Shown: positions 28,397 to 58,384 of the stretch, piece by piece | Position numbering within the stretch: the stretch's first letter is position 1 | Layout of the letters: each line of letters starts with the position of its first letter | Assembly: GCA_963827085.1 (NCBI GenBank) | Contig: CAWGZY010000002.1 | Coordinates: 261,889-325,888 of the forward strand | Direction: 5' to 3' | Source of the DNA: an uncultured Bacteroidota bacterium | GTDB lineage: Bacteria; Bacteroidota; Ignavibacteria; UBA10030; UBA8401 | Length of the DNA stretch: 64,000 bases | Made by a program: the position numbers and the translations under genes | Notes under the pieces: model-generated | What the model saw: only the letters and a program-made list of their open reading frames with translations | Database searches by the model: none | What the model was told of the DNA's origin: nothing

Positions 28397-28469
28397 GTCC
28401 CCATCGTCTAGAGGCCTAGGACCGGAGCTTTTCAAGCTTCTAACACGAGTTCGAATCTCGTTGGGGACA
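28397..28469 (+). tRNA. tRNA-Glu (UUC)
   Basis: GTCCCCATCGTCTAGAGGCCTAGGAC C GGAGC TTTTCAA GCTTC ... ACGAG TTCGAAT CTCGT TGGGGAC A. Closely resembles bacterial tRNA-Glu. Confidence 0.9.
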
Positions 28470-28477
28470 CACAATCG

Positions 28478-28513
28478 CCACTTAATTCGAAAGTTTTAAG
28501 TGGTTTTGTTTTT
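28478..28513 (+). terminator. Terminator after tRNA-Glu (ccacttaa ... ttaagtgg + TTTTGTTTTT)
   Basis: 8-bp stem, 10-nt loop, T-run. Confidence 0.65.
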
Positions 28514-28692
28514 TCATCCCACACCACATTTTGTATAAAAATTAGCAACACTTTATACAAAAGTGATCTGCACCCCAAAAAGTATACACGTAGTTAAGCC
28601 ACAGTTTGCTTGAGCAGTTGATGTTCAAATTGCTCGGACGATAGGTATCCGAGCGCGGAATGCTTGGCATGTGCAAACGGATGGTTTCTATA

Positions 28693-29232
28693 TTATTCCT
28701 GATTATGCACCTTGGCCGAAGCCAGCCGGACAAACACTGGCACTATCATCCTATGGAGGAGAAATGCTATCGGGGGGCCGATGAGAGCCCATGCAACGAT
28801 CGCGTGCAGTGTTGCCCACCACAACGAACGGATTGCGCCAAGAGTATCTGTGTGCACCATCGCTAGTATTTGAAAAGCAGAGAGAGAGATGGGCGAGGCA
28901 CCGGAAAGAACCTCACCGAGTCGTATAAGCACCGGAAGAAGAAGCAACTGGAGCGGAAACGCAAAATAATTCACGAGTTGGACGGCGGGGAGGTTCAGGT
29001 CGAAGGCAATGCTCGCGGCTGTGCACAGGATGGTCGTTGATCCAATCACGGGAAATGTGCTGATCGTAGCCCCGGACACAACACTCAACGCCAGCTTCTC
29101 CGGAGAAAGTCCCTGAGTCAGAAGGGAGAGAAGCGGGCGGAGAAGCGTTCGCTGAAGGAAAAGTTTTATCTGCTGTATGACGAGCATTAGTTCATCGGAA
29201 AGGGGATGTTTGAAATTATGGACGAAGCTCAC
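28693..29232 (-). CDS. Small polytopic membrane protein (DUF2062-like)
   Basis: ...LTQGLSPEKLALSVVSGATISTFPVIGSTTILCTAASIAFDLNLPAVQLVNYFAFPLQ... Transcribed divergently from the CarH-like promoter. Confidence 0.5.
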   Translation of the reverse strand: MSFVHNFKHPLSDELMLVIQQIKLFLQRTLLRPLLSLLTQGLSPEKLALSVVSGATISTFPVIGSTTILCTAASIAFDLNLPAVQLVNYFAFPLQLLLLPVLIRLGEVLSGASPISLSAFQILAMVHTDTLGAIRSLWWATLHAIVAWALIGPPIAFLLHRMIVPVFVRLASAKVHNQE

Positions 29233-29346
29233 AATCTACGTGATTGAACATCAAGTTCTTTCCGCTGGTTCCGCAATGGTGGTCGAAGAGGCAGCGACCG
29301 TTCTCACCTGTCCGGCGGGAATCTGAGGGGGGTATGCAAAAAAAAC

Positions 29347-29398
29347 TTGACAAATCGAAATTTCTACATTATCTTAAACCGTGCATATCGTGCATATC
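29347..29398 (+). promoter_or_regulatory. Promoter of the CarH-like operon: TTGACA, 17 bp, TATCTT, immediately followed by the tandem direct repeat CGTGCATAT CGTGCATAT (candidate operator)
   Basis: ttgaca at 29347-29352, tatctt at 29370-29375, repeats at 29380-29397. Sits inside the N-terminal extension of the track ORF, so the true start is the GTG at 29419. Confidence 0.5.
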
Positions 29399-29418
29399 AT
29401 CTAAAACAGGTATTTGCG

Positions 29419-30312
29419 GTGAAAGCGACCTACTCAACGGCGGATCTCGCCAAGCTCTTCGACGTCAACGAATCGACCGTTAAACGGTGGTCGGACGCTG
29501 GTGATTTGCAGTGTGTTAAGACTCGGGGGGGACACCGGCGGTTTTCCGTGGGATCGGTCATGCAGTTCGTGCATCAACACAAACTCTCTGCACCCCTTCT
29601 TTCCGCTGAGGGCATCAAGGACGAAAATCTCCGAGTCCATGTAATCGCAGGCAATATTCAGAAGCTAGTACCGGAATTCAAAAAGGAAATACTCGCAGGA
29701 AATGTGAATGGGGCACTAAATGTTGTCCGAACTGCCTTCGCCGCGAAGCCAAGTTTTCTTGAAATCTGTTCAACGGTTGTCTTCCCTGCCCTCAGGGAAA
29801 TCGGCGAAGAATGGCATGCGAAAACAATTTCCATCGACCGGGAACACGTCGCCACCAACACCGTAAAGGAAGCGTTGACCCTCTTCCAGTCGGATATCCA
29901 CCACAAAGAACCGAACGGATTGAAAGCCCTGTGTGCCTGTATTGAAGGAGATTTGCACGATGTTGCAATCCGTTGCGTAGGATATTACCTCGAGACTGAA
30001 GGCTGGCACGTTACGTTTCTCGGGCAATCGTCTCCGTCGAAGTCGGTCGTCAATGCGATCAATGCAAACAAGCTGGACCTTATTGCACTCAGCGCAACGA
30101 TCGTAGAGAATGAACGAAAATTTCTTCATGCGATGAATAACGACATCCAACCTGCAGCCCGTCGCACGCGAGCAATGCTGGCTGTCGGCGGACATAATAT
30201 CAGGGCACGATTTGGCAAACGGATTAAGGCCGATCATCTTTGCGATTCAATCGCTGAGTTTGAATTAATCGCCCGCCCGGACAACTACAACCATCGAAAG
30301 AATGGCCGATGA
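29419..30312 (+). CDS. CarH/LitR-type light-sensing transcription regulator: MerR-type HTH fused to an adenosylcobalamin-binding domain
   Basis: HTH reads (M)KATYSTADLAKLFDVNESTVKRWSDAGDLQCVKTRGGHRRFS. Four-helix-bundle signature EEWHAKTISIDREH (W-x9-E-H). B12-binding core GDLHDVAIRCVGYYLETEGWHVTFLG...AVGG. Confidence 0.8.
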   Translation: MKATYSTADLAKLFDVNESTVKRWSDAGDLQCVKTRGGHRRFSVGSVMQFVHQHKLSAPLLSAEGIKDENLRVHVIAGNIQKLVPEFKKEILAGNVNGALNVVRTAFAAKPSFLEICSTVVFPALREIGEEWHAKTISIDREHVATNTVKEALTLFQSDIHHKEPNGLKALCACIEGDLHDVAIRCVGYYLETEGWHVTFLGQSSPSKSVVNAINANKLDLIALSATIVENERKFLHAMNNDIQPAARRTRAMLAVGGHNIRARFGKRIKADHLCDSIAEFELIARPDNYNHRKNGR

Positions 30313-30341
30313 AACAATCGGGCAGTCTCTATGAGGATTAG

Positions 30342-31366
30342 GTGATTACAGCTTTGCTCGAACATAATGTCCTCCCCGATTGGCTGATCCGGATCGGTAT
30401 TCGGAGGCTGCTGCATCGGCGGCTAAAGGAAGAGGCCAAAGCCGACTGCGAACTGCAGCAACAGCACTTCATGAATCTCGTCGAGGAATTGAGAAAGAGT
30501 CCGATCGCGATCCACACTGACGATGCGAACGAACAGCATTATGAGCTTCCCACAGAATTTTTCAAACTCATCCTCGGGAAGCACATGAAGTACAGTTCGG
30601 GGTACTGGAACGACGGCGTTAACAATTTGGACCGATCAGAAGCTGACATGCTTGCGCTCACCTGCCAACGAGCGCAGATCACCGACGGGATGAGCATTCT
30701 TGAATTAGGGTGCGGATGGGGATCCTTGTCGTTGTTTATGGCGGAGCAATTTCCAAAGGCGCATATTACGGCCGTCTCAAACTCGCGCACGCAGAAATCT
30801 TTTATCGACGGCGAATCTGCCCGGCGCGGCCTGAAGAACGTCGCTGTTATCACTGCGGACATCAACAACTTCCAACCGATGAACAATTCGACCGGGTCAT
30901 ATCGGTGGAAATGTTCGAGCACATGAGAAATTATGAAAGGTTGATGGCAAAGGTGGCCGGATTCTTACATCCCGCGGGGAAACTCTTCGTCCACATTTTC
31001 ACTCATAAAGATTTTGCCTATACATTTGAGGTCAGGGATAACTCCGACTGGATGTCACAATATTTCTTCACCGGCGGAATCATGCCCAGTGATCATTTGC
31101 TCCTCTATTTCTCGAAAAACCTGGCGGTCGAAGAACATTGGAGAGTCTCGGGCATCCACTACCACAAAACGAGTGAAGCCTGGCTTGCCAACATGGATGC
31201 CCACAAAGAAAAGATCTTCCCGATTCTTGCTCAAACCTATGGCAACGGCCAGGCTACAAAATGGTGGGTATCCTGGAGAGTATTTTTTATGTCATGTGCT
31301 GAATTGTGGGGTTTCAACGGCGGCGAAGAATGGTTTGTGAGTCACTACTTTTTCACGAAAAGGTAA
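30342..31366 (+). CDS. Cyclopropane-fatty-acyl-phospholipid-synthase-like SAM methyltransferase, interrupted by a 1-nt frameshift near 30896
   Basis: Frame 1 (30342-30926) reads ...LELGCGWGSLSLFMAEQFPKAHITAV...ITADINNFQP. Frame 2 continues DEQFDRVISVEMFEHM...GFLHPAGKLFVH, which is the canonical CMAS motif. GTG start with a gagga RBS. Confidence 0.75.
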
Positions 31367-31371
31367 CCTGC

Positions 31372-32681
31372 ATGAGTAAGAAACATTCAGCGAGGACAAG
31401 CATCGGAATTGTCGGCACCGGCATCGCGGGGATGGGTTGCGCATACTTTTTGCATACGACCCACGACATCACAATCTACGAGCAAAATAATTACATCGGG
31501 GGGCACACAAATACGGTGACGGTGGACGAGGACGGCACGGAGATACCTATCGATACCGGCTTCATGGTCTACAATGAGGTTACCTATCCGAACCTTGTAA
31601 GACTGTTTCATGAGTTGAATGTTGAAACAAAGAACACTTCCATGTCGTTCAGCGTTCAGCATCTGCCATCGGGTCTTGAGTATTCCGGATCAAGTCTGAA
31701 CCATTTATTCGCGCAACGCAAGAATATCCTCAGTCCGCGTTTTATCCGGATGATATGGCAGATCAACCGTTTCAATAACGAGTGTCCTGAAGTTCTGGCA
31801 GATAAGAAATTCGCATCCTATACACTGAAGAGTATGTGCGGGAACGAAGATTCGGCGACGATGTTTTGAAAAAATACCTTGTACCCATGAGCTCTGCGGT
31901 CTGGTCAACACCTCCGGACCAGATGCTCCGGTTTCCGGCTGTCACGCTCGTGCGGTTCTTTAAGAATCACGGGTTTCTTGGCCTGGACACGCAACACCAA
32001 TGGCGCACCGTTGTTAACGGCACAAGAAGTTACCGGGATAAGCTCATCGCTCCGTTTGCAAAAAGAATCCTTACCGGCAACCCGGTCGTGAATGTCATGC
32101 GCAAGAAAAGGAAGGTCGAACTGCGGCTCAAAGATGGCGGGAGAGCGCTGCACGATCGCGTAATCCTTGCTTGCCATGCGGACGAGGCTCTGAACATGCT
32201 GGACAAGCCCACGACGCTCGAAAAGCGATTGCTCGGAGAATTCAAATACCAGCACAACAGGGCCACACTTCACACTGATGCGAGTCTTATGCCGAAGACA
32301 AAGCTCGCGTGGTCATCATGGAATTACCGCCTCGACACCAATGCCGACGGAACCTCAAAATCTTCCACGATCTACTACATGAACAGTCTTCAGAACGTGT
32401 CGAAAAAGAGGGATTATTTTATTTCCATCGATGATCCCGGGACTGTTAATCCCGGTTCGATATTAAAAGAAATTGATTACACGCATCCGGTCTTTTCCCT
32501 GGGAGCGATCACGGCGCAGAGAGAGCTGTCCCTTATCAATAAGGAAGGTCCGTTATATTTCTGCGGCAGTTATTTCAAATATGGGTTTCATGAAGATGCG
32601 TTCACTTCAGCCCTCGAACTTTGCAGGTCATTGATGGACGTGCCGATTTGGCCACCCCGGGAGGAGTTGCGTCAGCCATGA
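31372..32681 (+). CDS. NAD/FAD-binding amine-oxidase-like oxidoreductase (fatty-acid desaturase-like, UfaD-type), interrupted by a 1-nt frameshift near 31840
   Basis: IGIVGTGIAGMGCAYFL (dinucleotide-binding fold) ...; second frame ERRFGDDVLKKYLVPMSSAVWSTP... One G is missing in cggg(g)aacg. ATGA overlap with the next gene. Confidence 0.75.
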
Positions 32682-33451
32682 ATTCACGCATGTTCGACTG
32701 CACTGTGATGCATCACCGTCTTGAACCTCTCAGGCACAGATTTGTGTACAAAGTTTTTATGTTCTATCTCGATCTCGATGAGTTGGACGCCATCGATGCC
32801 GGCCTTACGTTCTTCAGCAGGAATCGGTTTAATCTCTTTACCCTCCGCGACCGGGACCATTTGACCTTTCATAAGTCGTCCATCAAGGAGAATATCAGGG
32901 AATACTTGAAATCCGCGGGGATCGATATCGGCAGCGGCAAGATCTATCTACTGACCAATCTCCGCACGGCGGGATACGTTTTCAATCCCGTATCGTTCTA
33001 CTTTTGCTTCGATGAAAAGGGCGATCCTGTGTGTGCCATTCCCGAAGTTGGAAACACATTCAGCGAGCTAAAACCATATCTGCTCACCCGCGATAGCTTT
33101 CGGAAGGGTACGTTCCGGGAGCGGATAGTGAAATACTTTTACGTGTCGCCATTTTTTGATCTCGACACAACATTCGATTTTCAGCTCCGGGTACCCGGCG
33201 AGACACTCCGTATCCAGATCGATGATTACAAGGAAGGGAGAAAAGCATTTCTCAGCTCTCTTGTCGGAAGAGAAAAGCCCCTGACCGATTTCAATCTTCT
33301 CCGTTCCTTTTTCCGCATTCCCTTTGTTACGCTGAAGGTGATTGCGCTCATCCACATTCAAGCAGGATTGCTCTATCTGAAGAAGCTCCCTTATCACAAA
33401 AAATCTGAAAACCCGGACCTACAAAAGGAAGTTTACATATGGAACAAGTGA
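32678..33451 (+). CDS. DUF1365-family protein
   Basis: MNSRMFDCTVMHHRLEPLRHRFVYKVFMFYLDLDEL... is typical of DUF1365, always found beside CFA-synthase-like genes. Confidence 0.75.
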   Translation: MNSRMFDCTVMHHRLEPLRHRFVYKVFMFYLDLDELDAIDAGLTFFSRNRFNLFTLRDRDHLTFHKSSIKENIREYLKSAGIDIGSGKIYLLTNLRTAGYVFNPVSFYFCFDEKGDPVCAIPEVGNTFSELKPYLLTRDSFRKGTFRERIVKYFYVSPFFDLDTTFDFQLRVPGETLRIQIDDYKEGRKAFLSSLVGREKPLTDFNLLRSFFRIPFVTLKVIALIHIQAGLLYLKKLPYHKKSENPDLQKEVYIWNK

Positions 33452-34701
33452 CACGACAGCCAATGGCGCTCCCCCGCTTGCTCGGCAGGCTTACCTCTCT
33501 CTACCAACGGATTGTTTTGGGCCTTCTGTCAGAAATGACGCAGGGCTTCATGAGGATTGTGCTGCCGGACGGCAAGGTTTTCGAGTTTGGCGACAAGAAT
33601 TCTCCGGACAAAGCAACGATCCGCATCATTTGCGAATCCTTTTTCCGGAAGTGTGTTCTCTACGGCGATGTCGGATTCGGAGAAGCATATGTGGACGGAG
33701 ACTGGGACACTGACAGCGTCGCAGCCGTTATCAAGTGGTTTTTGCTCAATGTCGAAAATGCTCCCACCGTATCGGGTTCCAGGAAAAAATTCATTCCGGG
33801 GAATTTCCTCAAGGTGCTTAACAGGATCTATCACAAACTCCGGGCAAACAGCATCCGGGGAAGCCAGAAGAACATTGCCGAGCACTACAACCTGAGCAAC
33901 GATTTCTTCAAACTATTTCTGGATAAAACGATGACGTACTCCAGCGCGTTCTTTTCGAGAGGTGACGAGACGCTGGAAAGTGCCCAGGAAGAAAAATATG
34001 ACCGGCTTTGCCGCAAATTAAGGCTTCAGCCTTCCGACCGTCTCCTCGAGATTGGCAGCGGATGGGGTGCTTTCGCACTCTATGCAGCCAGGAATTATGG
34101 CTGCAGAATTACGACAACGACAATTTCGGAAGAGCAGTACACGTATGCTAAGGAGCTGTTTCAGCGCGAGCATCTCGACAAGCGGATCGAAATCAAGCTT
34201 GCTGATTATCGGACGCTCAATGGATCTTACGACAAGATCGTCTCTATCGAGATGCTCGAAGCAGTGGGACACGAGTACCTCGAAACGTATTTTGCGAAAT
34301 GCCACGAGCTTCTGAAGAAGAACGGTATTCTTGCGTTTCAGGTCATTACCTGCGCTGATTCACGATACGAGTCGTTGCGAAAGAGCATCGATTGGATTCA
34401 AAAACACATTTTCCCCGGCTCTCTGCTTCCGTCGATCGGTGTTCTGAACAAGGCCATCAACAGAACTGGGGACCTGGTGATGCAGCATATGGAGGAGTTC
34501 GGCCTTAGCTACGCACGAACACTGGCACAATGGAGAGAAAATTTCAATAGCCGGGTCGGTCAGGTTCGCCTGCTGGGGTTTGATGAGAGATTCATTCGTA
34601 CGTGGAACTATTATCTCTCCTATTGCGAAAGTGCGTTTGCGATGCGCAACATCAGCGTTGTGCAGATGGTCTATACAAGACCAAATAACCTTTCGCTCTA
34701 A
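33439..34701 (+). CDS. Cyclopropane-fatty-acyl-phospholipid synthase family methyltransferase (intact, 420 aa)
   Basis: LEIGSGWGAFALYAA...DYRTLNGSYDKIVSIEMLEAVGHEY. Confidence 0.85.
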   Translation: MEQVTRQPMALPRLLGRLTSLYQRIVLGLLSEMTQGFMRIVLPDGKVFEFGDKNSPDKATIRIICESFFRKCVLYGDVGFGEAYVDGDWDTDSVAAVIKWFLLNVENAPTVSGSRKKFIPGNFLKVLNRIYHKLRANSIRGSQKNIAEHYNLSNDFFKLFLDKTMTYSSAFFSRGDETLESAQEEKYDRLCRKLRLQPSDRLLEIGSGWGAFALYAARNYGCRITTTTISEEQYTYAKELFQREHLDKRIEIKLADYRTLNGSYDKIVSIEMLEAVGHEYLETYFAKCHELLKKNGILAFQVITCADSRYESLRKSIDWIQKHIFPGSLLPSIGVLNKAINRTGDLVMQHMEEFGLSYARTLAQWRENFNSRVGQVRLLGFDERFIRTWNYYLSYCESAFAMRNISVVQMVYTRPNNLSL

Positions 34702-34736
34702 GACTGATCACCTACAACTTAGAACACCATCATACA

Positions 34737-35360
34737 ATGAAATATTTTGTCTCTTCATTATTTACGTTACTTTTTGCAGGAGCAACATGCATGGCCACCA
34801 AAGAACCAGCATACAAGGTGATCAAGGCGGATGGAGATTTCGAAATCCGGGAATACGTATCGTACTGTGTCGCAGAAACCTTTACAGACACCTCCGACTT
34901 CGATGAAGCATCGAACCAAGCATTCAGAAAGCTGTTCCGGTATATCTCGGGAGACAACCGTTCAAAGACAGAAATTGAGATGACGGCCCCCGTAACGACA
35001 TCGAAGTCTGAGAAGATAGAAATGACAGCGCCGGTGACATCGACAAAAACGGCCGGCGGGTATCTAACTGCCTTTGTTATGCCGGCGCAATTATCCCTCG
35101 GTACGACGCCTATACCCAATGATTCATCCATACAGATCCGAGAAATTCCTTCGCGCAGAGTTGCAGTAATAAAGTTTTCAGGCCGTTGGACTTCTTCGTC
35201 GATGGACGAACATGGAGGGCGACTGATGGAGTGGATCTCAAAAAACGGACTCGTCCCGACGGGTGAACCTGTTATTGCCCGATATGATCCTCCGTTTATG
35301 CCATGGTTTCTACGGAGAAATGAGATACAGATTCAGATAAGACCGTCGCAAGAACCGTAG
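34737..35360 (+). CDS. SOUL/HBP heme-binding family protein with a signal peptide. Contains the tandem peptide repeat EIEMTAPVT(T/S).
   Basis: Signal MKYFVSSLFTLLFAGATC, then ...YxVIK..DFEIREY... and a C-terminal RYDPPFMPWFLRRNEIQIQI. Confidence 0.65.
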   Translation: MKYFVSSLFTLLFAGATCMATKEPAYKVIKADGDFEIREYVSYCVAETFTDTSDFDEASNQAFRKLFRYISGDNRSKTEIEMTAPVTTSKSEKIEMTAPVTSTKTAGGYLTAFVMPAQLSLGTTPIPNDSSIQIREIPSRRVAVIKFSGRWTSSSMDEHGGRLMEWISKNGLVPTGEPVIARYDPPFMPWFLRRNEIQIQIRPSQEP

Positions 35361-35446
35361 TTGTTACCCGGAAACGATCTCATGGCGGCGCTCGTTGAGC
35401 AACGAGCCGTATTGCATTCAACTTACACTTAACCACACGGTGACTT

Positions 35447-35845
35447 ATGTTCATAAAACTCTATCTCATCACGCTCCCTGTGTTTTTTGCAATTGATATG
35501 ATTTGGCTTGGGGTTGTCGCCAAGAACTTCTATCGCGAACAAATTGGCTTCTTGATGACACCGGATATTAACTGGCCCGCAGCCATCATCTTCTATCTGC
35601 TTTTCATTGCCGGATTAATTCTCTTTGTTATTTCTCCGGCCGTGGAAAAACGGATGTGGCTTGATGCGCTGCTGATGGGTGCGCTGTTTGGTCTCATAAC
35701 ATACGCCACTTACGACCTCACAAACCTCGCAACAGTGAAGAACTGGCCGGTACTGGTCACAATAGTGGATTTAGCGTGGGGAGCAACATTGTCAGCGTCG
35801 GTCTCACTGATAAGCTATCTCATCGTCACAAAATTTGTATTATGA
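35447..35845 (+). CDS. DUF2177-family small membrane protein
   Basis: Four TM segments, 132 aa, ATGA overlap with the next gene. Confidence 0.55.
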
Positions 35846-36606
35846 ACTACTACCTTATCCTAGCTTCAGCGCTCTTTTCGTACATGACATTGTGCTTCAT
35901 TGTTTCTCTCATAAAAAAAAGAAATGATGTCGCCGACATCGCATGGGGGCTTGGCTTTGTTCTGCTTGCTTGGCTGGCTGAGTATTTTTCCAGATTTGCG
36001 GTTCGATCGTTGCTTGCCAATCTGCTGGTTACTCTTTGGGGATGCCGGCTGGCGTGGCATATATACCGTCGCAATCGGAATAAGGCTGAAGATTATCGTT
36101 ATCAGGCATGGCGAAAGGAATGGAAAAACTTTGCGCTTCGAAGCTTTCTCCAAGTCTATATGTTGCAGGGCATTCTCCTGTACGTCACCGCCCTTCCTGT
36201 GCTTTTCATCAATCACGCTCCGGCATCGCCGTTGGGATGGACGGATCTTGTCGGAATGGTGATTTGGTTGATCGGCTTTTCTTTTGAAAGCATCGGCGAC
36301 CGTCAACTGCGAGAATTCATCCGGCATCCGGCTAACAAAGGAAGAATCATGGATAAAGGCCTTTGGCGGTACAGCCGTCATCCCAACTATTTTGGTGAGG
36401 TCACTCAATGGTGGGGAATATTCATCGTTGCCCGATCACTGCCCGAGAGCTGGTGGACTGTCATTGGCCCGCTGACCATAACCGTCCTCATACTTTTTGT
36501 TTCTGGGGTCCCGCTTCTCGAGAAAAAGTACGTGGGGAGAGATGATTTTGAGGAGTATAAGAACCGTACGAGTATCTTCTTTCCACTGCCGCCAAAAGCG
36601 TCATGA
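35842..36606 (+). CDS. DUF1295-family membrane protein (steroid-5alpha-reductase / ICMT-like fold)
   Basis: ...[14 protein letters not shown]... motif, multi-TM. Confidence 0.7.
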
Positions 36607-36857
36607 AACCGCTTGAGGACCACGTCTTTTATTAATGGTTCAAAATCGTCTACATAGAGATTCTAGGATTTTTTCGAGTCAGAGTTAATAAGGAGTTCTT
36701 CAAAACAAATTAGCTTCGCTCACTTGATGTTTCCATCTTTAATTACTACGTTTTCCCGTGTTAGTTTTTGGAACGGAATTGCTAACAGACTGCTAACACG
36801 GTTCCCGAAAATCACCACGATTTTTGGCGAATCCAGACGAAATTCGATACCGAACCA

Positions 36858-36992
36858 GCTTTTCAAGCTTCTAACACGAGTTTGAATCTCGTTGGGGACA
36901 CACGATAACCACTTAGTTCGAGAGTTCTAAGTGGTTTTGTTTTTCTATCCCACGCCACATTTTGTATAAAATTGGGGACAATTTATACAAAA
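36858..36992 (+). repeat. Diverged duplicate (~87% identity) of the 3' half of tRNA-Glu plus its terminator and downstream ttgtataaa..tttatacaa palindrome. The original is at 28426-28562.
   Basis: agcttttcaagcttctaacacgagtttgaatctcgttggggacac ... ccacttagttcgagagttctaagtgg + ttttgttttt. The stem carries a compensatory a->g / t->c pair. Confidence 0.75.
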
Positions 36993-37199
36993 ATTATACT
37001 CCTCGTTATACACTCTCCTCAATGAACTTTTCTCAGCAACATATTCACTTACTGTAGGGGTGAATTGTATTTTGCCGGGAGGAGCGTTGAATGTAAAGGC
37101 AATAATGACTACTTTTGATTTACGATCAAAAACTGCAGTGCACTTGCATGAAAGACCTCACCTTTACACCTATTTATCAACCCGTCGGAGAATATTGAT

Positions 37200-38045
37200 A
37201 TGAATCTTCAGAACAAGACCGCCGTTGTCACCGGCGGAGCAATGGGAATCGGACTGGCGACTGCCCGCCGTCTTGTGGCAGAGGGATGCATTGTGACGCT
37301 CTGGGATCTAAACGAAAAAGCGCTTAACGAAGCGCAGAACGAACTCGCTTCCCAAGGGACCGCGTATGCCCATCGGTGCGATGTCACCGATAAGAACCTC
37401 GTCTATCAGCTCGCGAAGAAAGCCGAAGAGGAAATGGGAAGGGTCGACATCCTTATCAACAATGCCGGGTACGTCTCCGGCGGGGATCTCCTCGACCGCC
37501 CGGATGATGAATGGGAGCGTACGATCGACGTGAACCTGACCGCTCTCATCTATACGACGCGTGCGTTTCTGCCGGGAATGTACAAACGAGACTGCGGTCA
37601 TGTCGTCAACATCTCTTCTGCCGCCGGCACCATCGGGGTACCCGGACTTGCCGTCTACGCTGCGACAAAATGGGGCGTATGGGGATTGACCGAGTCGCTC
37701 CGGATGGAGGCCTACAACAACAAGAAATACGGAGTGAAGTTTTCGACAATCCATCCGAGCTACATCGCGAGGGGAATGTTCGAAGGGGCGCGGCTCGGTT
37801 TTCCGGGGCGGCTGATTGTTCCGTTGGTGAAAAGCCACGACGTGATTGCCGGTGCGATTGTCGACTCTGCTTTGAAGAAAGGGCGTTATTCCCCCAAGCG
37901 GCCGAGGACAGTCAACATGAACATCCGATTTCGTGCGCTCATGCCGGACAGCTGGTTTCAGCACTTCCTCATACTGATGGGCGTCGGCGGAAGCATGAAG
38001 TCGTGGTATGGACGAACCAAAGAAGAAACCGCGGTGAAGCCATGA
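37200..38045 (+). CDS. Short-chain dehydrogenase/reductase (SDR)
   Basis: TAVVTGGAMGIGLA...NNAG...YAATK. Confidence 0.85.
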   Translation: MNLQNKTAVVTGGAMGIGLATARRLVAEGCIVTLWDLNEKALNEAQNELASQGTAYAHRCDVTDKNLVYQLAKKAEEEMGRVDILINNAGYVSGGDLLDRPDDEWERTIDVNLTALIYTTRAFLPGMYKRDCGHVVNISSAAGTIGVPGLAVYAATKWGVWGLTESLRMEAYNNKKYGVKFSTIHPSYIARGMFEGARLGFPGRLIVPLVKSHDVIAGAIVDSALKKGRYSPKRPRTVNMNIRFRALMPDSWFQHFLILMGVGGSMKSWYGRTKEETAVKP

Positions 38046-39625
38046 CGACAACATCGACATCGATCAGGGAAAGTGTTCCGTCCGTGAATCCCGCGACAGG
38101 GGAAACCATCGGGATGACGGAAGTGAATACCGTTGCCGATCTCAACGATGCAGTCGCTGGGGCCCGGAAGGTCCAGCCTGCCTGGGAGGCGGCCGGTTAT
38201 AGAGAACGTCGACGGCATCTCCTCCTCGTTCGCGACTATATCGTGACGAACGCGGAATTGCTCGCAGACATTATCTCCCGCGACACCGGAAAGACGAAAA
38301 TCGATGCGCTCAGTACCGAAGTGATGTCGGCAGCGATGGCGGTCAGCTACTATGCCGCGCACGCAGAAAAGATACTAAGGCGTAAGCGACTGAGCGGCGG
38401 GAGCCTTCTCACCTTCAACAAGCGCTCGTACGTCGACCGGGTGCCAATGGGTGTCGTGGGCATTATCAGTCCGTGGAATTATCCGTTCGCGATTCCAATC
38501 CACGAAGTTGCGATGGCGCTCATTACAGGAAACGCGGTCATTCTGAAGGTTGCCTCTCAGACACTCCTAGTCGGAAAGGCAATCCAGGATGCCGTGGCGG
38601 CGGGGAATTTTCCCCCCGGCATTTTCACGCTCATAAATTTGCCCGGGACGGTCGCGGGGAAAGGATTCCTCGAGTCGGACATCAACAAACTTTTCTTCAC
38701 CGGCTCCGTTGCCGTCGGCAAGCAGCTGATGGCGAAAGCGGCCGAGCGGCTGATTCCCGTCTCGCTCGAGCTTGGCGGAAACGATGCAATGATCGTCTGC
38801 CGGGATGCGAACGTGCACCGCGCTGTGAACGGAGCGCTTTGGGCAGGAATATCGAACGCCGGACAATCGTGCGCCGCAGTGGAGAGAATTTATGTCGAAG
38901 ATCCTCTCTATGAAGCGTTCGTCGCTCTTCTCAAGGAAAAGATGCATGGGCTGAAACAAGGACCGGATCAGAACTGTGACTTCGATGTGGGGGCGATGAC
39001 AACGAAAGAACAGATGAAGAAAGTGCAGGATCAGCTCCGCGACGCCAGATCGAAGGGGGGAAAAATATTTGAGAACCCTCCCTCCAACGGTGCGAATCTT
39101 ACGGGCATGTTCATCTCGCCGACAATAGTCGAAGACGCCACCGACGACATGATGCTGATGAAAGAGGAAATCTTCGGTCCGGTCCTTGGTGTCGCCAGGG
39201 TGAAGGACGTGGATGAAGCAGTACCAAAGGCAAATGCCTCAAGACTGGGGCTGACGGCTTCTGTCTGGTCCCGCAACAAGAAAAAGGCCCGCAGCATCGC
39301 CGCCCGGCTCGAAGTAGGATCGGTGATGATCAACGACCACCTCATGAGCCACGGACTTGCCGAGACACCGTGGGGCGGCTTCAAGGAATCCGGGATCGGC
39401 CGCACGCACGGTTATCTCGGACTGGAAGAGATGACGCAGCCCCGTGTCGTCATCGATGACATCCTGCCGGGCATGCAGAAAAATATGTGGTGGTATCCGC
39501 ACAACAGAAGGGTCTTCGATGGACTCCTTGGCGGACTACACGTCCTCTATTCAAAGAGTCTGACGAAGCGTCTGGCCGGCGTCTTTAAGCTTGTTCCGGT
39601 CTTCTTACGGAGTTTTCAAAAATAG
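38042..39625 (+). CDS. Aldehyde dehydrogenase family protein (ATG at 38042, ATGA-coupled to the SDR). The 704-aa track ORF beginning at 37511 is an artefact of an open upstream frame.
   Basis: ...ELGGNDAMIV...GQSCAAVERIYV... catalytic Glu and Cys motifs. Confidence 0.9.
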   Translation: MTTTSTSIRESVPSVNPATGETIGMTEVNTVADLNDAVAGARKVQPAWEAAGYRERRRHLLLVRDYIVTNAELLADIISRDTGKTKIDALSTEVMSAAMAVSYYAAHAEKILRRKRLSGGSLLTFNKRSYVDRVPMGVVGIISPWNYPFAIPIHEVAMALITGNAVILKVASQTLLVGKAIQDAVAAGNFPPGIFTLINLPGTVAGKGFLESDINKLFFTGSVAVGKQLMAKAAERLIPVSLELGGNDAMIVCRDANVHRAVNGALWAGISNAGQSCAAVERIYVEDPLYEAFVALLKEKMHGLKQGPDQNCDFDVGAMTTKEQMKKVQDQLRDARSKGGKIFENPPSNGANLTGMFISPTIVEDATDDMMLMKEEIFGPVLGVARVKDVDEAVPKANASRLGLTASVWSRNKKKARSIAARLEVGSVMINDHLMSHGLAETPWGGFKESGIGRTHGYLGLEEMTQPRVVIDDILPGMQKNMWWYPHNRRVFDGLLGGLHVLYSKSLTKRLAGVFKLVPVFLRSFQK

Positions 39626-41552: not shown

Positions 41553-44500
41553 ATGGAACCTACTGTGATTGGGTCCTCACATAGCAGCGTTATGCCTTCC
41601 TCCTACAGATATACACGACCAAGACCAACCAAGAATCTTCTTATCTCCTTTCTTTGTTCTCTCGTGTTCACAATCGGTGCGAGCGCCCAATCGGTCGGAT
41701 CGAAACTCACAGATGCTGATCAACTCGAAATACGCGCTTACGAATTCTTTGTATCCGCCTGTTATGACAGCTCCCTTGCTTGTTACGAGAAGGCAGAGAA
41801 CCTGTATGCCAATGTTGGCAACTGGGCAGAAGTTCTTGAGTGCCTCAACCGGGAAGCAGACGTGCTTGCAAGATTAGCGCAGTATGAAAAAGCAGTGATG
41901 TGTTTGGAAAAGGCAAGAGAGATCGCTGCTGACAAGCTCCCACCGGACGACCCAATACTAGGAACAACATATAGCCTTCTGGGGTATATCTACCACCACG
42001 AGCAGGCATACAGCGAGGCTGTTCGCTATCTCCAAGAAGGATTGAGAATCAGATTAAAGGCATATGGTCCGATGAATATTGAGGTCGGCCGCTCTTACTA
42101 CTTGCTTGCGACGACTTACAGAACAATGGGAAAATATGATGAAGCTCAATTAGCTATTACACAAGCCTTGGACTTAAGCGGAAAAGTGGGAAATCAAGAA
42201 GACATGGCAATGAATATGCTCGCATTGGCAAACATACTATCTGACAAAGGTGAGTACGCAGGTTCGATAAATATTGAGAGGATCATAGAAGACACTCTCG
42301 TCAAGGCTGGGAAAAAGTCGAGTGCTCTGCTCGCAACGTGCTATTTCTATCATGGGAGAGACCTCCTCCATGAGAACCAATACAAAAGCGCAGTTTCCTA
42401 TCTATCAAGATCACTTTCTCTTTTTACCGGACTCTATGGGGAGAATCATCCTGATGTTTCAGGGTGCTTAATGAAACTAGGCGAGGCCTATTCACTTCAG
42501 GGAGATTTTACGCAGGCACAGTCATATTTCACTAAAAGCCAAGAAGTCCTGCTCAAAATAAACGGCCCAAATCATTCCAGCATGGCAGAATTATACGCTT
42601 ATCTCAGCGACTTGTATTTGAGAAAACACGATTTGGATAGTGCGCTTTCCTTTGGACAGAAGTCAACGCAAATACAACGGATCTACTACGGGGGATCACA
42701 TATCTCTACAGCAAATAGTCTCGAGAAGCTTTCTCGTGTATTTGAACGAAAGGGTGATTATAACGCTGCACTCGCCACCCTGGACAGTTCTCTTGTGATA
42801 AAGCTGGCAATCAACCCCAGCTCCGTGGAGGTGGCCAGGCTATATTTGTCAATCGGGGTTGTTCATTCGAAATCAGACCGCGCAGACAAGGCGGATTTCT
42901 ATTTTCGGCTAGCTCGAGAGGTTTTTGATAGTTCGCATTCTACCGACACTACTTTTCTAGTATTACTGCAAAATTCTTACGGCGATATGTTTCTTAGAAA
43001 GAAAAACTTTCACTCGGCCCTCGATCACTATAAGGAAGCTGCATTACTCTTGCAGGGAGGATCGGGCGAAAGAATGTTCACCTCCTCCGTACGCAACGAG
43101 CTTTCAAGCTCGGACGAGCTCAGACTCCACTACTTGTTGTCGGCTTCAAGGGCGTACGAATCGCTTGACTCAGTTTCCGGCAACTTTCATTATCTCGATA
43201 GTGCCTATTGCGACCTTGAGAATGCGATGTCCATTCAAACAATGATTCGAAGGGGATACAAGGCAGAGGGATCGAAGATCTATTTTGACGAAGAATCCTA
43301 TGATGTCAACAAAAATGCTGTGGAGGACGCGTTGGCACTGTATTCCAAAACAAAGGATAAGAAGTATCTCCAGAAGGCATTCCAGTGTTCCGAAAAATCG
43401 AAAGCGAATCTCTTGTTTGATAAGATGATTCAGTCTGAAGCACTGCATTCTTCCGGAGCGCCCGATAGTATGCTGCAAAGAGAAGAACTTCTGAGGACCA
43501 ACATTGCAAGTTCAAATTATAAAGTGGGAGAGACAAATCTACAGAGCGACCCCAAAGGACAACATTCCGACTACTTTGCTAATCTTGTTGCCTATGACAG
43601 GTTAATGGATTCCCTCGAGAACTATTTTCCTAATTACTATGATCTGAAGTACCGGGTGGAAGAAATCGCGCTCCCTCCGATCCAAAAACGTCTTCCTTCC
43701 ACCTCTGTGATTCTTGAATACTTCTTTGCAAAAGACAGGCTTTGTATTTTCACCATATCGAAAGACAAATTTGATCTCACGGTCGTACGGAGAACGTCGG
43801 AGATCAAAGAAGCCGCGTTGGCCATGAGGAAATCTTTGAGGACCGTCGACAGGCGTGAATACTTAAAACAAGCTTCCGATCTCTACAGAATGATCGTGCA
43901 GCCGGTGGAGAAATTTTTAAAAGGAAAACAACTGATCGTAATCCCTGACGGAGAATTGTACTACATACCGTTTGAATCTCTTCTCACCGCGCCGCAGTCA
44001 AACGAGACTTTTTCTAATTATTCAAGTCTTCCGTTTCTTATTAAGACACACACAGTATCGTACGCTTATTCCACCTCCTTGTTCATGGAACGGCGGCTGA
44101 GTCCGCCGCACACCGAGAAGAGCTTTGTCGGTTTCGCTCCAGTGTTCGACGATTCCACAAACAAGAATCTTGGGGAAACATCAAAAAAGGATTTCGCGGA
44201 GCTTCGCTCATTTTCTTTAGATGGAAAAAAATACGGCGACTTGGAATATAGTCAGGAGGAGGTGGAGGATATTGCCGCGCTCTTTGAAAACAAGAATTTG
44301 AAATCGAAAATATTCTTACATGATGAGGCCAGTGAAAGCAACTTCAAACAGGCTGTTCATGATTACAGCTTCGTGCATATTGCCAGCCATGGATTTGCCG
44401 ACGAAATTCATCCGGATTTATCGGCGCTCTTATTTTCAGAAGCCGGCGGACATCAAACGAGAGAAGATGGAATTTTGAACGCAAGTGAGACGTATGACCT

Positions 44501-44807
44501 TAAATTGAACGCAGACCTTGTTGTTCTGAGCAGCTGTGAGAGCGGGATTGGAAGGCTCGTGAAGGGTGAAGGCCTGATGGCGATTACCAGAGGATTCTTT
44601 TATTCAGGCGCCAGAAATGTGCTTTTCTCGTTGTGGAAAATTTCAGATAAGAGTACCAGCAAACTCATGGTCGATTTTTATCGGTCTATTCTCGCCGGTG
44701 ATAGTTTCCCCCGAGCACTGCAGGAGACAAAGTTGAATGTGATCCGTAATAATCCGTACGACTTCCCCAGCGAATGGGCGGGATTTCTTCTCATTGCCTC
44801 GAATTAA
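41553..44807 (+). CDS. Secreted TPR-repeat protein with a C-terminal CHAT (caspase-like) protease domain
   Basis: Signal peptide (KNLLISFLCSLVFTIGASAQ), about 12 TPR-like repeats, and a CHAT His/Cys dyad (FVHIASHGF ... LVVLSSCESG). Confidence 0.85.
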   Translation: MEPTVIGSSHSSVMPSSYRYTRPRPTKNLLISFLCSLVFTIGASAQSVGSKLTDADQLEIRAYEFFVSACYDSSLACYEKAENLYANVGNWAEVLECLNREADVLARLAQYEKAVMCLEKAREIAADKLPPDDPILGTTYSLLGYIYHHEQAYSEAVRYLQEGLRIRLKAYGPMNIEVGRSYYLLATTYRTMGKYDEAQLAITQALDLSGKVGNQEDMAMNMLALANILSDKGEYAGSINIERIIEDTLVKAGKKSSALLATCYFYHGRDLLHENQYKSAVSYLSRSLSLFTGLYGENHPDVSGCLMKLGEAYSLQGDFTQAQSYFTKSQEVLLKINGPNHSSMAELYAYLSDLYLRKHDLDSALSFGQKSTQIQRIYYGGSHISTANSLEKLSRVFERKGDYNAALATLDSSLVIKLAINPSSVEVARLYLSIGVVHSKSDRADKADFYFRLAREVFDSSHSTDTTFLVLLQNSYGDMFLRKKNFHSALDHYKEAALLLQGGSGERMFTSSVRNELSSSDELRLHYLLSASRAYESLDSVSGNFHYLDSAYCDLENAMSIQTMIRRGYKAEGSKIYFDEESYDVNKNAVEDALALYSKTKDKKYLQKAFQCSEKSKANLLFDKMIQSEALHSSGAPDSMLQREELLRTNIASSNYKVGETNLQSDPKGQHSDYFANLVAYDRLMDSLENYFPNYYDLKYRVEEIALPPIQKRLPSTSVILEYFFAKDRLCIFTISKDKFDLTVVRRTSEIKEAALAMRKSLRTVDRREYLKQASDLYRMIVQPVEKFLKGKQLIVIPDGELYYIPFESLLTAPQSNETFSNYSSLPFLIKTHTVSYAYSTSLFMERRLSPPHTEKSFVGFAPVFDDSTNKNLGETSKKDFAELRSFSLDGKKYGDLEYSQEEVEDIAALFENKNLKSKIFLHDEASESNFKQAVHDYSFVHIASHGFADEIHPDLSALLFSEAGGHQTREDGILNASETYDLKLNADLVVLSSCESGIGRLVKGEGLMAITRGFFYSGARNVLFSLWKISDKSTSKLMVDFYRSILAGDSFPRALQETKLNVIRNNPYDFPSEWAGFLLIASN

Positions 44808-46333: not shown

Positions 46334-47126
46334 AGCTCTCCGGCGAAATACAAAACCAAGTTACTTCTTATTATGGAGTGTATCAAGTTTGCCGAAGTAT
46401 GTCCCGGTCTTTGAAACGGGAATCAATTCATCTTTTTCGATCGTTGGTGGAGCCCTTCCTGATGAAGGATCAATTAGTAGATAATGTTCCCATCACTGTG
46501 ACTCGTCAGCTAAGCGAAAACACCGACTCTTTTTTCTGCAACTTGATGGAGCAAGCAAAAGAAGACTGGTGTCTCCTCATCCTCGCGGCAATTCATTACA
46601 ATTTATGCCATTACTTCATGAGCAGCCGTGCATCATAAGATAAAAGAAGTGCCAGCGATGATCTGTTAAGGATTGGGTCGGAAACGCCGCACTCCTTTTC
46701 GTGCAGAAAATGCCCGAGCCTTCGGTCGCCTGAAAAAAGGCCGGCAATGCCTTTTTTTAGCCTGATTTCCTATTGTTCAATGCCGAATCACATCCTGTCG
46801 TTGAAACAGGATTAATCCTTTTTTCATCCTTTCGGGCTATTACTTTTCAATGCCATCATTAGTACAATTTTTCATGATTCCGGTGAAAAATTGCTGCGTC
46901 CTTTTTGGTCGCATCAAAACTGCGGCACTATTGTAATAATGGCTCATCAATGGAAAAAACGATTTCATTTTTCTCTTTTCATTATCCGAACTTTGTTCAT
47001 GGCTGATCTTCAAAGTTAAAAAAAAGTGCGAGGAAATAACCTAATTGAGATTGTGTATTAATTCTTCTTTGATTCAAAACTGACTTTTAAAAAAGCGTTT
47101 GCGAGGTTTTGCCCTTGAATATATTA

Positions 47127-48590: not shown

Positions 48591-48607
48591 CAATACGGTT
48601 AAACGTC

Positions 48608-49012
48608 ATGGATCCATCTTCTCAGCGCTACTCGGCTCTTATAATCGATGACTCCCCGCACATGCGAATCCTCATGTCAAAGCTGCTGCTCCGCAGCGGG
48701 TTCACGCTCGTCGACGTTGCCGTCAACGGTGCCGACGGACTGCAGCACTTCACCGCATCCAATCCCGATATTGTTTTTCTTGATGCAGTGATGCCCGAGA
48801 TCGACGGACTGGATGTATTGCGAAAAATTAAGTCCCTCAAACCCGACACCATCGTCGCCATGACGACCTCGCTGTCGGAAAAGGAAAAAGTATTGAGGTT
48901 CAAGGAAGCGGGAGCCGATTACTACCTGCTTAAACCATTTGAAGAGGGAAAATTCATGGAGACCCTGCAAAAAATGGTCGCGATTCTCGACCGACGTTCG
49001 AAAAAGGAATAA
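48608..49012 (+). CDS. Single-domain response regulator (CheY-like receiver)
   Basis: ALIIDDSPHMR...DIVFLDAVMPEIDG...YLLKPF. Confidence 0.85.
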   Translation: MDPSSQRYSALIIDDSPHMRILMSKLLLRSGFTLVDVAVNGADGLQHFTASNPDIVFLDAVMPEIDGLDVLRKIKSLKPDTIVAMTTSLSEKEKVLRFKEAGADYYLLKPFEEGKFMETLQKMVAILDRRSKKE

Positions 49013-57529: not shown

Positions 57530-58090
57530 TTAGGTCAATTCAACTTTTTCAGGAACGGCCATCGCACCGATCGTATTGCATACCTGCTCGACTTCATACT
57601 TCCGTGTTTCACTGAAACTTTTCAACACTTGTGCAATTCGTTTCGATTCTTTTTCTATCGAATTGATATCCATCGTCAGTTCCTGCGACAGCTGAACCGA
57701 CCGTCTGACTTTGCCGAGTGTAAGGGCTATAACGGCAAGCGGATTATTGACTTGATGCTGTAAACCTAATACCACTTCCCGCATTGTGGAAAGTTGGGTT
57801 TCTTTTGTCTGCAATTCCTGCTCTTTTATTAATCTTTGAGTTTCACTTTCGTGAAGTCTTGCGCGGATGTTCAATACTTTTACCCACGTCATTGCCAACA
57901 GCCACATGAAAGGAAGGGCGTTGAACAATTCCAGAACATCATAAACAGTTACTGCCGCGTGCCTTGCAATGATAAAAAGCCTGATCATCACCATGAATAA
58001 ATACAAATAGATAATATAACCGGAAATGACAGCCGGATATTTTGTCGGCAATTCTCTGATCGAGCGGAAAAGATTGACAAGTGTTTTCAT
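57530..58090 (-). CDS. Membrane protein with a HisKA-like phosphoacceptor/dimerisation domain but no ATPase domain
   Basis: Two TM helices, then an H-box-like LGLQHQVNNPLAVI. 186 aa in total. Confidence 0.5.
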   Translation of the reverse strand: MKTLVNLFRSIRELPTKYPAVISGYIIYLYLFMVMIRLFIIARHAAVTVYDVLELFNALPFMWLLAMTWVKVLNIRARLHESETQRLIKEQELQTKETQLSTMREVVLGLQHQVNNPLAVIALTLGKVRRSVQLSQELTMDINSIEKESKRIAQVLKSFSETRKYEVEQVCNTIGAMAVPEKVELT

Positions 58091-58384
58091 AACAAGTGAA
58101 GGCTCCTTTTGGTGTCTCAGTTTGTCGGAGAAACGATTTCGTGCCTTAGTAACTCAGTGGCTCATGAAAGTTTTTTCCAGCAACCTGCTGGAAATGCGGC
58201 CGATAAGTTCGACTCTGGGTTTTTCTCCGTGGTTCCCTGAGCCGCTTTTGTGTTTCTCTATGAAACAGTCTTTTGCGACACTGAGTGGCACCGAGATTCA
58301 CAGAGCTCCACAGAGAAAATGGGTTTCCGACCCGATCTTTAGTGCTGTTTCTCAAAAATAATCTTGTATTTTTTTAACCGCGAA

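Follow-up and report, generated by a model that had tools for sequence, protein, structure and literature searches.

A candidate B12 photoreceptor with a predicted direct-repeat operator heads a conserved lipid-modification operon in an uncultured Ignavibacteria bacterium

A 64,000-nucleotide stretch of DNA from an uncultured Bacteroidota bacterium of the class Ignavibacteria (GenBank assembly GCA_963827085.1, contig CAWGZY010000002.1, positions 261,889 to 325,888; hereafter, the window) was found to contain a gene encoding a regulator with a vitamin B12-binding domain, immediately trailed by seven genes assigned to lipid modification. Judging from the sequences compared here, this unit is probably a light-derepressed operon, in which a repressor that uses B12 as photoreceptor and a direct-repeat operator head a lipid operon of the furan fatty acid type. 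A preliminary description of the same DNA had proposed a light-derepressed lipid operon of this kind. The photoreceptor signatures, the operator, now seen as a footprint across loci, and the conserved pairing of regulator and lipid genes speak for that proposal, whereas the regulator is not a CarH equivalog and two downstream genes that had been counted as members, encoding a short-chain dehydrogenase/reductase (SDR) and an aldehyde dehydrogenase (ALDH), do not belong to the operon. A Pfam scan recovered all of the families that had been named.

The components of the unit, in window coordinates and with the strand in parentheses, are as follows.

29347-29375 (+): sigma-70-type promoter; -35 element TTGACA at 29347-29352, 17-bp spacer, -10 element TATCTT at 29370-29375
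29377-29412 (+): predicted operator of four tandem 9-bp direct repeats, from a position weight matrix (PWM) and comparison of orthologous loci
29419-30312 (+): regulator, 297 amino acids, CtMerR-type adenosylcobalamin (AdoCbl) photoreceptor candidate, from Pfam, PDB sequence match, NCBIfam and AlphaFold/Foldseek
30342-31366 (+): S-adenosylmethionine-dependent methyltransferase 1 of the cyclopropane fatty acid (CFA) synthase family (CMAS1), 341 amino acids when intact; Pfam CMAS match split over two frames
31372-32681 (+): FAD-containing enzyme of the amine oxidase family (AOX), 436 amino acids when intact; Pfam NAD_binding_8 and Amino_oxidase matches, split over two frames
32678-33451 (+): DUF1365 protein, UfaO-like; full-length match to Pfam PF07103, E = 1.2e-74
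33439-34701 (+): S-adenosylmethionine-dependent methyltransferase 2 of the CFA synthase family (CMAS2), 412-420 amino acids; Pfam CMAS, E = 4e-87
34737-35360 (+): SOUL/haem-binding-family protein; Pfam SOUL, E = 1.5e-49
35447-35845 (+): DUF2177 membrane protein (Pfam)
35842-36606 (+): DUF1295 (steroid-reductase/ICMT-like) membrane protein (Pfam), last gene of the operon
36907-36945 (+): hairpin and U-tract, probable operon terminator; 10-bp stem, -22 kcal/mol, z = -2.4 by RNA folding
28693-29232 (-): DUF2062 membrane protein (Pfam DUF2062), divergent from the regulator gene

Regulator, promoter and operator

The regulator comprises a BldC-like winged helix-turn-helix (HTH) domain (approximately residues 3-50), a four-helix bundle containing GEEW...EH and a Rossmann-type B12 domain containing GDLH and GQSSP, with Pfam assigning HTH_17/MerR_1, B12-binding_2 and B12-binding, the last (PF02310) at 52 bits and including the histidine ligand. 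As had been proposed, the true start is the GTG at 29419; orthologues start at the same position with either ATG or GTG, and the TTG at 29347 is part of the -35 hexamer rather than a start codon. Both signatures on which the earlier claim of a photoreceptor had leaned were found, namely, W132-HAKTISIDR-E142-H143 (Wx9EH), which is invariant in 21 family members down to 29% identity, and the histidine-ligand motif D178-x-H180-x-x-A183, which is invariant in the same 21 proteins. CarH homologues are defined by Wx9EH together with ExHxxG-x41-SxV/T-x22-27-GG (PMC8156234). In the regulator, the histidine-ligand motif is followed, 41 residues on, by S225-x-T227 and, after a further 29 residues, by G257-G258, such that the His, Ser and GG are present. 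A light-response signature obtained with SignatureFinder comprises GxxW, EH, GxxH and GxxxP (PMC11796333); all four elements, here appearing as GEEW, EH, GDLH and GQSSP, occupy invariant columns in the alignment of the 21 relatives.

The best sequence match in the PDB was CtMerR (8jbs_A; E = 6.2e-35, residues 3-259), followed at distance by the CarH of Thermus thermophilus (TtCarH; E = 1.6e-8). Likewise, when an AlphaFold model of the regulator (pLDDT 86) was submitted to Foldseek, the top matches were 8jbs and 8jbt, then TtCarH and photocobilins, with methionine synthase appearing later; the TM score of 0.90 (rmsd 2.0 Å) obtained with the first of these speaks to the fold of the B12-binding domain only, that being the part contained in the solved 8jbs structure. 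The NCBIfam CarH model (NF052513) yielded 54.5 bits, as compared to a cut-off of 400, and the regulator is assigned by sequence to the CtMerR type and not to the CarH equivalogs. Identity as a class II LitR, a protein with the four-helix bundle only and no Rossmann B12 domain, is excluded by the PF02310 match with its histidine ligand. CtMerR itself (Chloracidobacterium thermophilum, PDB 8JBS/8JBT; Yu et al., 2024, PMC11796333) presents the same three-part architecture, can be aligned from the HTH up to and including the Rossmann domain (E = 6e-35) and carries the same signature, including DxHxxA, with the TM score of 0.90 for the B12 domain relating to a predicted model; it differs in sharing only about 30% identity. 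The B12 domain of CtMerR responds to light in vitro, and its DNA site was described only as 'alternative' (PMC11796333). Taken on its sequence, the regulator very probably uses vitamin B12 as a light sensor.

Considered separately, the N-terminal 70 residues of the regulator matched only CtMerR (E = 6e-14) and BldC (E = 4e-7) in the PDB, and the NCBIfam HTH_BldC model (NF033787), for which the cut-off is 77, gave 50.5 bits (E = 1.3e-13) for the regulator. The DNA-binding domain resembles BldC, yet by this curated threshold is not a member of the BldC family. BldC is a MerR-like winged HTH protein whose subunits each occupy one 9-bp site and are arrayed head to tail along two or four direct repeats (PMC5859096). 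The Streptomyces protein (PDB 6AMA/6AMK) has the T-x-GGHRR wing motif in common with the winged HTH of the regulator and likewise reads head-to-tail direct repeats of 9-bp units, two or four at a time, whereas it is a 68-residue stand-alone protein with no sensor domain and its repeat consensus is AATTxxxxC. Such binding fits the four-unit 9-bp array seen at the promoter of the regulator gene.

That promoter, TTGACA-17-TATCTT, is as previously read. The exact tandem CGTGCATAT CGTGCATAT at 29380-29397, earlier considered a plausible operator on its own, is present and lies in conserved DNA but is only part of a longer array, namely, AACCGTGCA TATCGTGCA TATCATCTA AAACAGGTA at 29377-29412, for which the family consensus is AAWCGTGCA. 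Starting 2 nt past the -10 box and stopping 6 nt short of the start codon, the array covers the predicted transcription start and the 5' untranslated region. It scores 25 bits with the operator PWM, while the next-best site in the window scores about 13 bits or less, and a PWM scan of the window and of all fetched loci detected no second operator. Within the regulator gene, at 29556-29573, GGTCATGCAGTTCGTGCA forms a weak two-unit site resembling the operator (about 10 bits), which is probably due to chance.

Comparison across loci (designated L001 and so on) addressed the operator in a wider setting. In about 45 loci, in which the encoded proteins share 25-93% identity, tandem AAWCGTGCA-type repeats lie just upstream of the regulator gene. 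A recognisable TTGACA-N17-TAnnnT promoter was seen in about 25 of these, with the array there starting directly past the -10 box and with hexamers and spacing kept despite variation in the spacer sequence; included are carotenoid (crt)/photolyase operons (L008, L061) and the Chloracidobacterium locus. All eight of the examined loci with gene clusters resembling the ufa genes of furan fatty acid synthesis present TTGACA, 17 bp, TAnnnT and four repeats, with the sequence of the spacer varying freely. Moreover, a strict scan of both strands of 955 kb returned 27 arrays, every one of which was directly upstream of a regulator gene and on the coding strand. By such comparison, the predicted operator constitutes a strong phylogenetic footprint. 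It does not follow the pattern of class I CarH operators, which consist of three or four tandem 11-bp repeats (nAnnTnnACAn), as opposed to the 9-bp AAWCGTGCA units seen here. Activation by MerR-style spacer distortion is ruled out by the optimal 17-bp spacer and by the location of the repeats downstream of the -10 box.

Extent of the operon and its likely product

Seven genes trail the regulator gene with small gaps or overlaps, the largest gap being 86 bp; in ufa-like loci, the junctions of the first genes are likewise overlaps or gaps of no more than 29 nt. The preliminary description had counted nine co-directional genes, the last two encoding the SDR (37200) and the ALDH (38042). These are separated from the DUF1295 gene by a 593-bp non-coding stretch. 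Since DUF1295 is the final gene in close relatives (L001, L002 and L009, with convergent genes coming next in L001 and L002), since the hairpin and U-tract lie in the gap and since a PWM scan detected no operator-like site there, the SDR and ALDH genes are neighbours rather than members, and the operon consists of seven genes. In none of the close relatives examined was either gene found downstream of the operon. An Rfam search of the whole window returned two tRNAs only, with no riboswitch or other known RNA in the 5' untranslated region or in the 593-bp gap.

A metagenome scan using a DUF1365 alignment yielded 80 loci, 49 of which are at least 8 kb long, and revealed DUF1295, CMAS1, AOX, DUF1365, CMAS2 and, often, DUF2062 to form a widespread, conserved cluster. 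DUF1295 is found in the cluster of most of these loci. The SOUL gene is kept in L001, L002, L009 and L062, while DUF2177 is kept in close relatives and also adjoins a CarH-type regulator in L099. DUF2062, divergent in the window, adjoins the regulator in L001, L002, L005, L009 and L062 and is found inside the DUF1365 clusters of at least 12 metagenome loci, and so is a regular member of the lipid cluster in other lineages. Accessory content varies, as seen in L007 (16013-18131; a 52%-identity relative), where the lipid operon extends to a gene for a membrane fatty-acid desaturase and another for a B12-binding radical-SAM enzyme, and in L082, where it is headed by a desaturase and DUF1475.

In Rhodobacter, UfaD (RSP1091) is an FAD enzyme that acts as a desaturase and UfaO (RSP1090) is a DUF1365 protein that inserts O2 to close the furan ring (PMC7380195), as the preliminary description had correctly stated. 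The only characterised DUF1365 proteins, namely, the UfaO proteins of two species, are makers of furan rings that need a UfaD-type FAD partner (PMC7380195). In the window, the AOX gene is directly upstream of the DUF1365 gene, with their stop and start codons overlapping, and the core order of AOX, DUF1365 and a CFA-synthase-like gene matches ufaD-ufaO-ufaM, being the same as in RPA2571-2570-2569. The likeness that had been drawn between the set of amine oxidase, DUF1365, CMAS, DUF1295 and SDR genes and RSP1091-1087 holds for the families and for the AOX-DUF1365-CMAS order but not for the SDR, which lies outside the unit. Accordingly worded by family, AOX is a candidate UfaD-like desaturase (a family-level match only), the DUF1365 protein is a candidate UfaO, CMAS2 is a candidate UfaM by both family and position, and CMAS1 is a candidate second lipid methylase with a presumed FufM-like role. 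CMAS2 and CMAS1 scored 290 and 165 bits, respectively, with the NCBIfam Cfa equivalog model, both values being below the cut-off of 400.

With these assignments, the following mechanism can be proposed. In the dark, the AdoCbl-loaded regulator would oligomerise, probably as a tetramer, as do CarH and CtMerR, and its four BldC-like winged-HTH domains would lie head to tail on the four 9-bp repeats just downstream of the -10 box. The bound oligomer would block transcription of the regulator gene together with the seven that come after. Upon illumination with UV, blue or green light, the Co-C bond would break, the oligomer would fall apart, DNA binding would be lost and the operon would be transcribed. 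The encoded enzymes would then remodel unsaturated phospholipid acyl chains, with UfaM-like CMAS2 methylating, the UfaD-like FAD enzyme desaturating and the UfaO-like DUF1365 protein inserting oxygen to give the furan ring; a second methyl group may come from CMAS1. Singlet oxygen and radicals in the membrane would be scavenged by the furan or methyl-branched fatty acids so generated.

We infer the furan product by analogy with Rhodobacter, and it is this step of the mechanism that meets the most serious competitor, namely, that regulation is as proposed but that the enzymes generate cyclopropane, methyl-branched or other modified acyl chains and not furan fatty acids. Both methyltransferases indeed belong to the CFA synthase family, RSP1089-1087 of the Rhodobacter operon play no role in furan fatty acid synthesis (PMC7380195), the SOUL, DUF2177, DUF1295 and DUF2062 proteins are of no known function, and a CFA synthase gene of Vibrio cholerae is induced by blue light (PMC5241685). 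At the same time, neither methyltransferase reaches the Cfa equivalog cut-off, and the characterised DUF1365 proteins form the furan ring with just such a UfaD-type partner as is encoded here by the adjacent gene and in the same order. A product other than furan fatty acids is accordingly possible, if doubtful.

Cargo of the regulator family, integrity of the operon and its surroundings

To describe what members of the regulator family control, one genome per species was considered, giving 51 loci, with cargo being counted in the 37 loci containing at least 3 kb of downstream sequence. Almost all of the 51 come from metagenome-assembled genomes (MAGs) of Ignavibacteria, Kryptoniota or unclassified 'Bacteroidota', with a few coming from Blastocatellia. 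Same-strand carotenoid genes (crtI-crtB-crtY and others), photolyase genes and/or folE were found downstream in 28 of the 37, a TonB-dependent receptor gene in three, the lipid cluster in two and none of these cargo types in five. Carotenoid, photolyase and folE genes are the classical light regulon of CarH/LitR systems and, by that analogy, the count offers the best indirect evidence that the regulator family senses light in vivo. It had earlier been remarked that carotenoid genes, the usual targets of CarH, are absent here; this is true of the locus itself, while for the regulator family such genes are part of the commonest cargo. folE is frequent beside the carotenoid and photolyase genes (L013, 11528-12487; L012, L014, L015, L021, L024, L027, L049 and L056), paralleling the light-induced folE reported for the Pseudomonas LitR regulon.

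The lipid operon is, as such, a minority cargo of the family, but one that is conserved. A ufa-like cluster trails the regulator gene in the window and in L001, L002, L005, L006, L007, L009, L023, L062 and L065, with the pairing being kept, despite some reshuffling of genes, over 44-93% identity of the regulator. The pairing also recurs elsewhere. Four of the 49 metagenome loci that reach 8 kb or more place a B12 regulator bearing Wx9EH in the lipid cluster. That of L065 is of the CtMerR/BldC type and has the operator, whereas the remaining three have a classical MerR_1 domain:

L082 2765-3700 (-), L099 4571-5539 (-) and L073 ~2756-3802 (-): classical MerR_1 and B12 regulators with Wx9EH and xxHxxG, inside DUF1365 lipid clusters

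Candidate B12 photoreceptors with two different kinds of DNA-binding domain are therefore coupled to the lipid cluster, and the pairing with canonical CarH-type regulators (L073, L082, L099) appears to have arisen separately. The MerR_1-type loci stem from unrelated organisms, one of low and one of high GC content. In L082, the regulator faces a desaturase-CMAS-AOX-DUF1365-CMAS-DUF2062 operon, while genes for a glutathione peroxidase and DUF1295 lie downstream of the regulator gene on the same strand and may be co-transcribed with it.

A sub-clade with regulators that are 56-59% identical encodes, right after the regulator, a TonB-dependent receptor with a CarboxypepD_reg domain (L003/L004, 10882-13197; L010, 2914-5190; L011, 1552-3852; L023, 1050-3353). 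In some cases, a DUF1731 epimerase gene follows, and in L023 the receptor gene sits between the regulator gene and the lipid cluster. The receptor may serve light-induced uptake of cobalamin or of another compound.

The regulator could instead sense the supply of cobalamin and not light, with AdoCbl acting as a plain corepressor and the operon following B12 status. The domain binds B12 whatever the role of light, the gene directly downstream of the regulator in the loci just listed encodes a receptor of the class that includes B12 importers, and the source MAG is of unknown light exposure, its closest relative (L009) also being an environmental MAG. Yet, only light-sensing B12 domains have the Wx9EH/GxxW cap over the adenosyl group, which enzyme B12 domains and the B12-independent CarA lack (PMC8156234, PMC11796333), and the carotenoid, photolyase or folE genes present in 28 of the 37 family loci have no tie to B12 nutrition. 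Light-induced uptake of B12 would, moreover, be sensible in itself, since photolysis consumes the chromophore. Sensing of cobalamin supply is accordingly held to be unlikely.

The integrity of the operon was considered next to that of related loci. Alignment with L009, L001, L002 and L062 placed a 1-nt deletion at 30873 in CMAS1 and another at 31827/8 in AOX, with the Pfam models of both proteins running on across the frame break. The DUF1365 protein has a 100% identical database entry, and one contig carrying this DUF1365 match, L062, is an independent assembly from run ERR11571142. It matches window positions 28591-36799 at 99.93% over 8211 bp, the sole differences being four substitutions and the single-base gaps at precisely these two positions. 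Both genes are intact in L062, encoding 341 (CMAS1) and 436 (AOX) amino acids; AOX is also intact in L009 and L002, while the AOX gene of L001 contains two different single-base insertions (12662 and 13130). Elsewhere in the window, open reading frames (ORFs) of 1086, 1264 and at least 1425 codons are uninterrupted, and no other clearly split gene was noted in an ORF map and one 10-protein Pfam sample, no systematic search having been made. A generally error-ridden assembly is, as a cause of the frameshifts, disfavoured by these long ORFs and by the complete Pfam domains of the sampled neighbours. Single-base deletions are typical consensus errors of long-read assemblies, making this a likely cause. 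Because L062 is intact and no other split gene turned up, the two deletions are read from these comparisons as local consensus errors or rare variants and not as loss of the pathway. Decay of the operon, with the frameshifts being real pseudogenising mutations and the circuit no longer working in this genome, would suit two deletions falling within 1 kb in the first two enzymes of a window that otherwise seems sound, as well as the two indels in L001 AOX, but is improbable in the face of a near-identical assembly that differs at just these two bases and four others, of the undamaged state of the other operon genes and of the commonness of such deletions as consensus errors.

The cassette comprising DUF2062, the regulator and the operon is bracketed exactly by two direct repeats, which leave the SDR and ALDH genes outside:

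28426-28540 (+): left direct-repeat copy, at least 115 nt, containing the 3' 45 nt of a tRNA-Glu gene (28397-28470), beginning at the anticodon loop, then a terminator hairpin and flanking sequence of about 30 nt
36857-36971: right copy, 91% identical to the left, at a spacing of 8431 bp

The terminator hairpin at 36907-36945 falls within this second, tRNA-Glu-derived copy. Copies in relatives lie at 3685-3728 and 17436-17480 in L001 and at 16963-17006 in L009, with a partial tRNA-Glu copy coming after the operon in both. The arrangement has the look of an att scar left by an island that integrated at tRNA-Glu, although the DNA between the repeats revealed no integrase in the window, and the loci of relatives yielded no full tRNA at their repeat copies.

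Farther along, the window encodes a B12-binding radical-SAM enzyme with DUF4070 beside a response regulator (47091-48590 and 48515-49012) and a 1084-residue TPR-CHAT protein (41553-44807), neither showing any link to the operon. An ORF of 207 codons at 57530-58153 (-) contains a HisKA domain without an ATPase domain and may represent a truncated or frameshifted histidine kinase.

Relation to known light-response systems

Several points weigh against a light-derepressed lipid operon headed by a B12 photoreceptor. The evidence comes from sequence alone, for the protein as for the whole clade, the source is an uncultured MAG, and two enzymes of the operon are frameshifted in this assembly. The histidine motif of the regulator is DxHxxA and not ExHxxG, and its Ser-to-GG spacing is 29 rather than 22-27 residues, as in CtMerR; the DxHxxA deviation is shared with CtMerR, a protein that binds AdoCbl. 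For CtMerR, only the B12 domain was tested, in vitro, with the DNA site and regulon not being determined. Some family members precede a TonB-dependent receptor gene, which would also fit B12 sensing. Because two of the repeats (3 and 4) are degenerate in the window and only two are clear in distant relatives, the reading of four repeats by the four domains of a tetramer is a guess. As to the product, the CFA-synthase-family enzymes cannot be assigned to UfaM, FufM or Cfa by available models, and RSP1089, the CFA-like gene of the R. sphaeroides operon, is dispensable for furan fatty acid synthesis (PMC7380195).

The light-derepressed operon proposed here can be compared with several known systems. 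Class I CarH/LitR proteins (CarH of T. thermophilus, LitR of Bacillus megaterium, CarH of Myxococcus) have the same AdoCbl light module with Wx9EH and are repressors, often autoregulated, that act at tandem direct-repeat operators overlapping sigma-A promoters and control photoprotective cargo. The match to these proteins is weak (E = 1.6e-8; 54.5 of 400 bits), the DNA-binding domain here is of the BldC/HTH_17 type and not a classical MerR domain, and the cargo is a lipid-modification operon. The Chloracidobacterium locus (L060) presents the same kind of 9-bp repeats upstream of its regulator gene but adjoins carotenoid genes and not a lipid operon.

In Pseudomonas, according to PMC9758184, which cites Sumi et al. 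(2020), class II LitR repressors (PplR1/PmlR1) and LOV proteins render genes for an SDR, an FAD oxidoreductase, ufaM, hypothetical proteins, phrB and folE light-inducible. The physiological idea is the same and the gene families overlap, but class II LitR has no B12 Rossmann domain, the light signal coming from the LOV proteins. Closely related systems, of the class III/IV LitR type, are found in Burkholderia and Vibrio (PMC5241685) and also lack the B12 Rossmann domain. By contrast, the regulator considered here contains the complete set of AdoCbl sensor motifs and itself heads the operon. In R. sphaeroides RSP1091-1087 and R. palustris RPA2571-2568, genes for the FAD enzyme, the DUF1365 protein and a CFA-synthase-like protein are found in the same order as here (PMC7380195). 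The Rhodobacter genes are induced under photo-oxidative stress through the sigmaE-ChrR singlet-oxygen response (PMC7380195), and not under the control of a photoreceptor. Relative to them, the operon in the window is enlarged by a second methyltransferase gene as well as by SOUL, DUF2177, DUF1295 and DUF2062, but lacks an SDR gene within the unit.

Light-inducible clusters of the ufaM/CFA type under LitR-family or ChrR control have, as such, been described in Pseudomonas, Burkholderia, Vibrio and Rhodobacter (PMC5241685, PMC7380195 and PMC9758184). The preliminary description had portrayed the pairing of regulator and effectors as departing from standard annotation, which was too strong a claim in view of this published control by non-B12 LitR or by ChrR. 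In a literature search of incomplete coverage, no paper was found that describes a B12-type photoreceptor heading a lipid cluster or that defines the CtMerR operator.

The locus is thus best seen as a real and conserved regulatory unit, and as a credible variant of known bacterial sunscreen circuits rather than a new kind of system; nothing known is overturned by it. What it usefully adds is an operator of four 9-bp units, a DNA-reading domain of the BldC-like kind, revised boundaries for the operon and the finding that the pairing recurs. For the CtMerR family, until now represented by a B12 domain examined in vitro, it supplies a predicted operator and a predicted regulon. In more general terms, CtMerR-type regulators may form a distinct class of B12 photoreceptor, in which a BldC-like domain is joined to a CarH-type light module, a tetramer reads four 9-bp AAWCGTGCA repeats over the transcription start and, in one Ignavibacteria-like clade, furan fatty acid synthesis is gated directly by light, a generalisation to which we would give about even chances. 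If true, the reading of 9-bp repeats by a BldC-type domain would give B12 photoreceptors a mode of DNA recognition, and an operator code, of which no description yet exists. Compact switches that respond to green light through a defined operator of 36 bp are, moreover, sought in optogenetics. The link between light and furan or methyl-branched lipids, known in Proteobacteria through sigmaE-ChrR and non-B12 LitR, would be extended, in that a direct B12 photoreceptor may serve this purpose in uncultured Ignavibacteria-like bacteria. This suggests that shielding against light by furan-type lipids is widespread, as an alternative or a complement to carotenoids.

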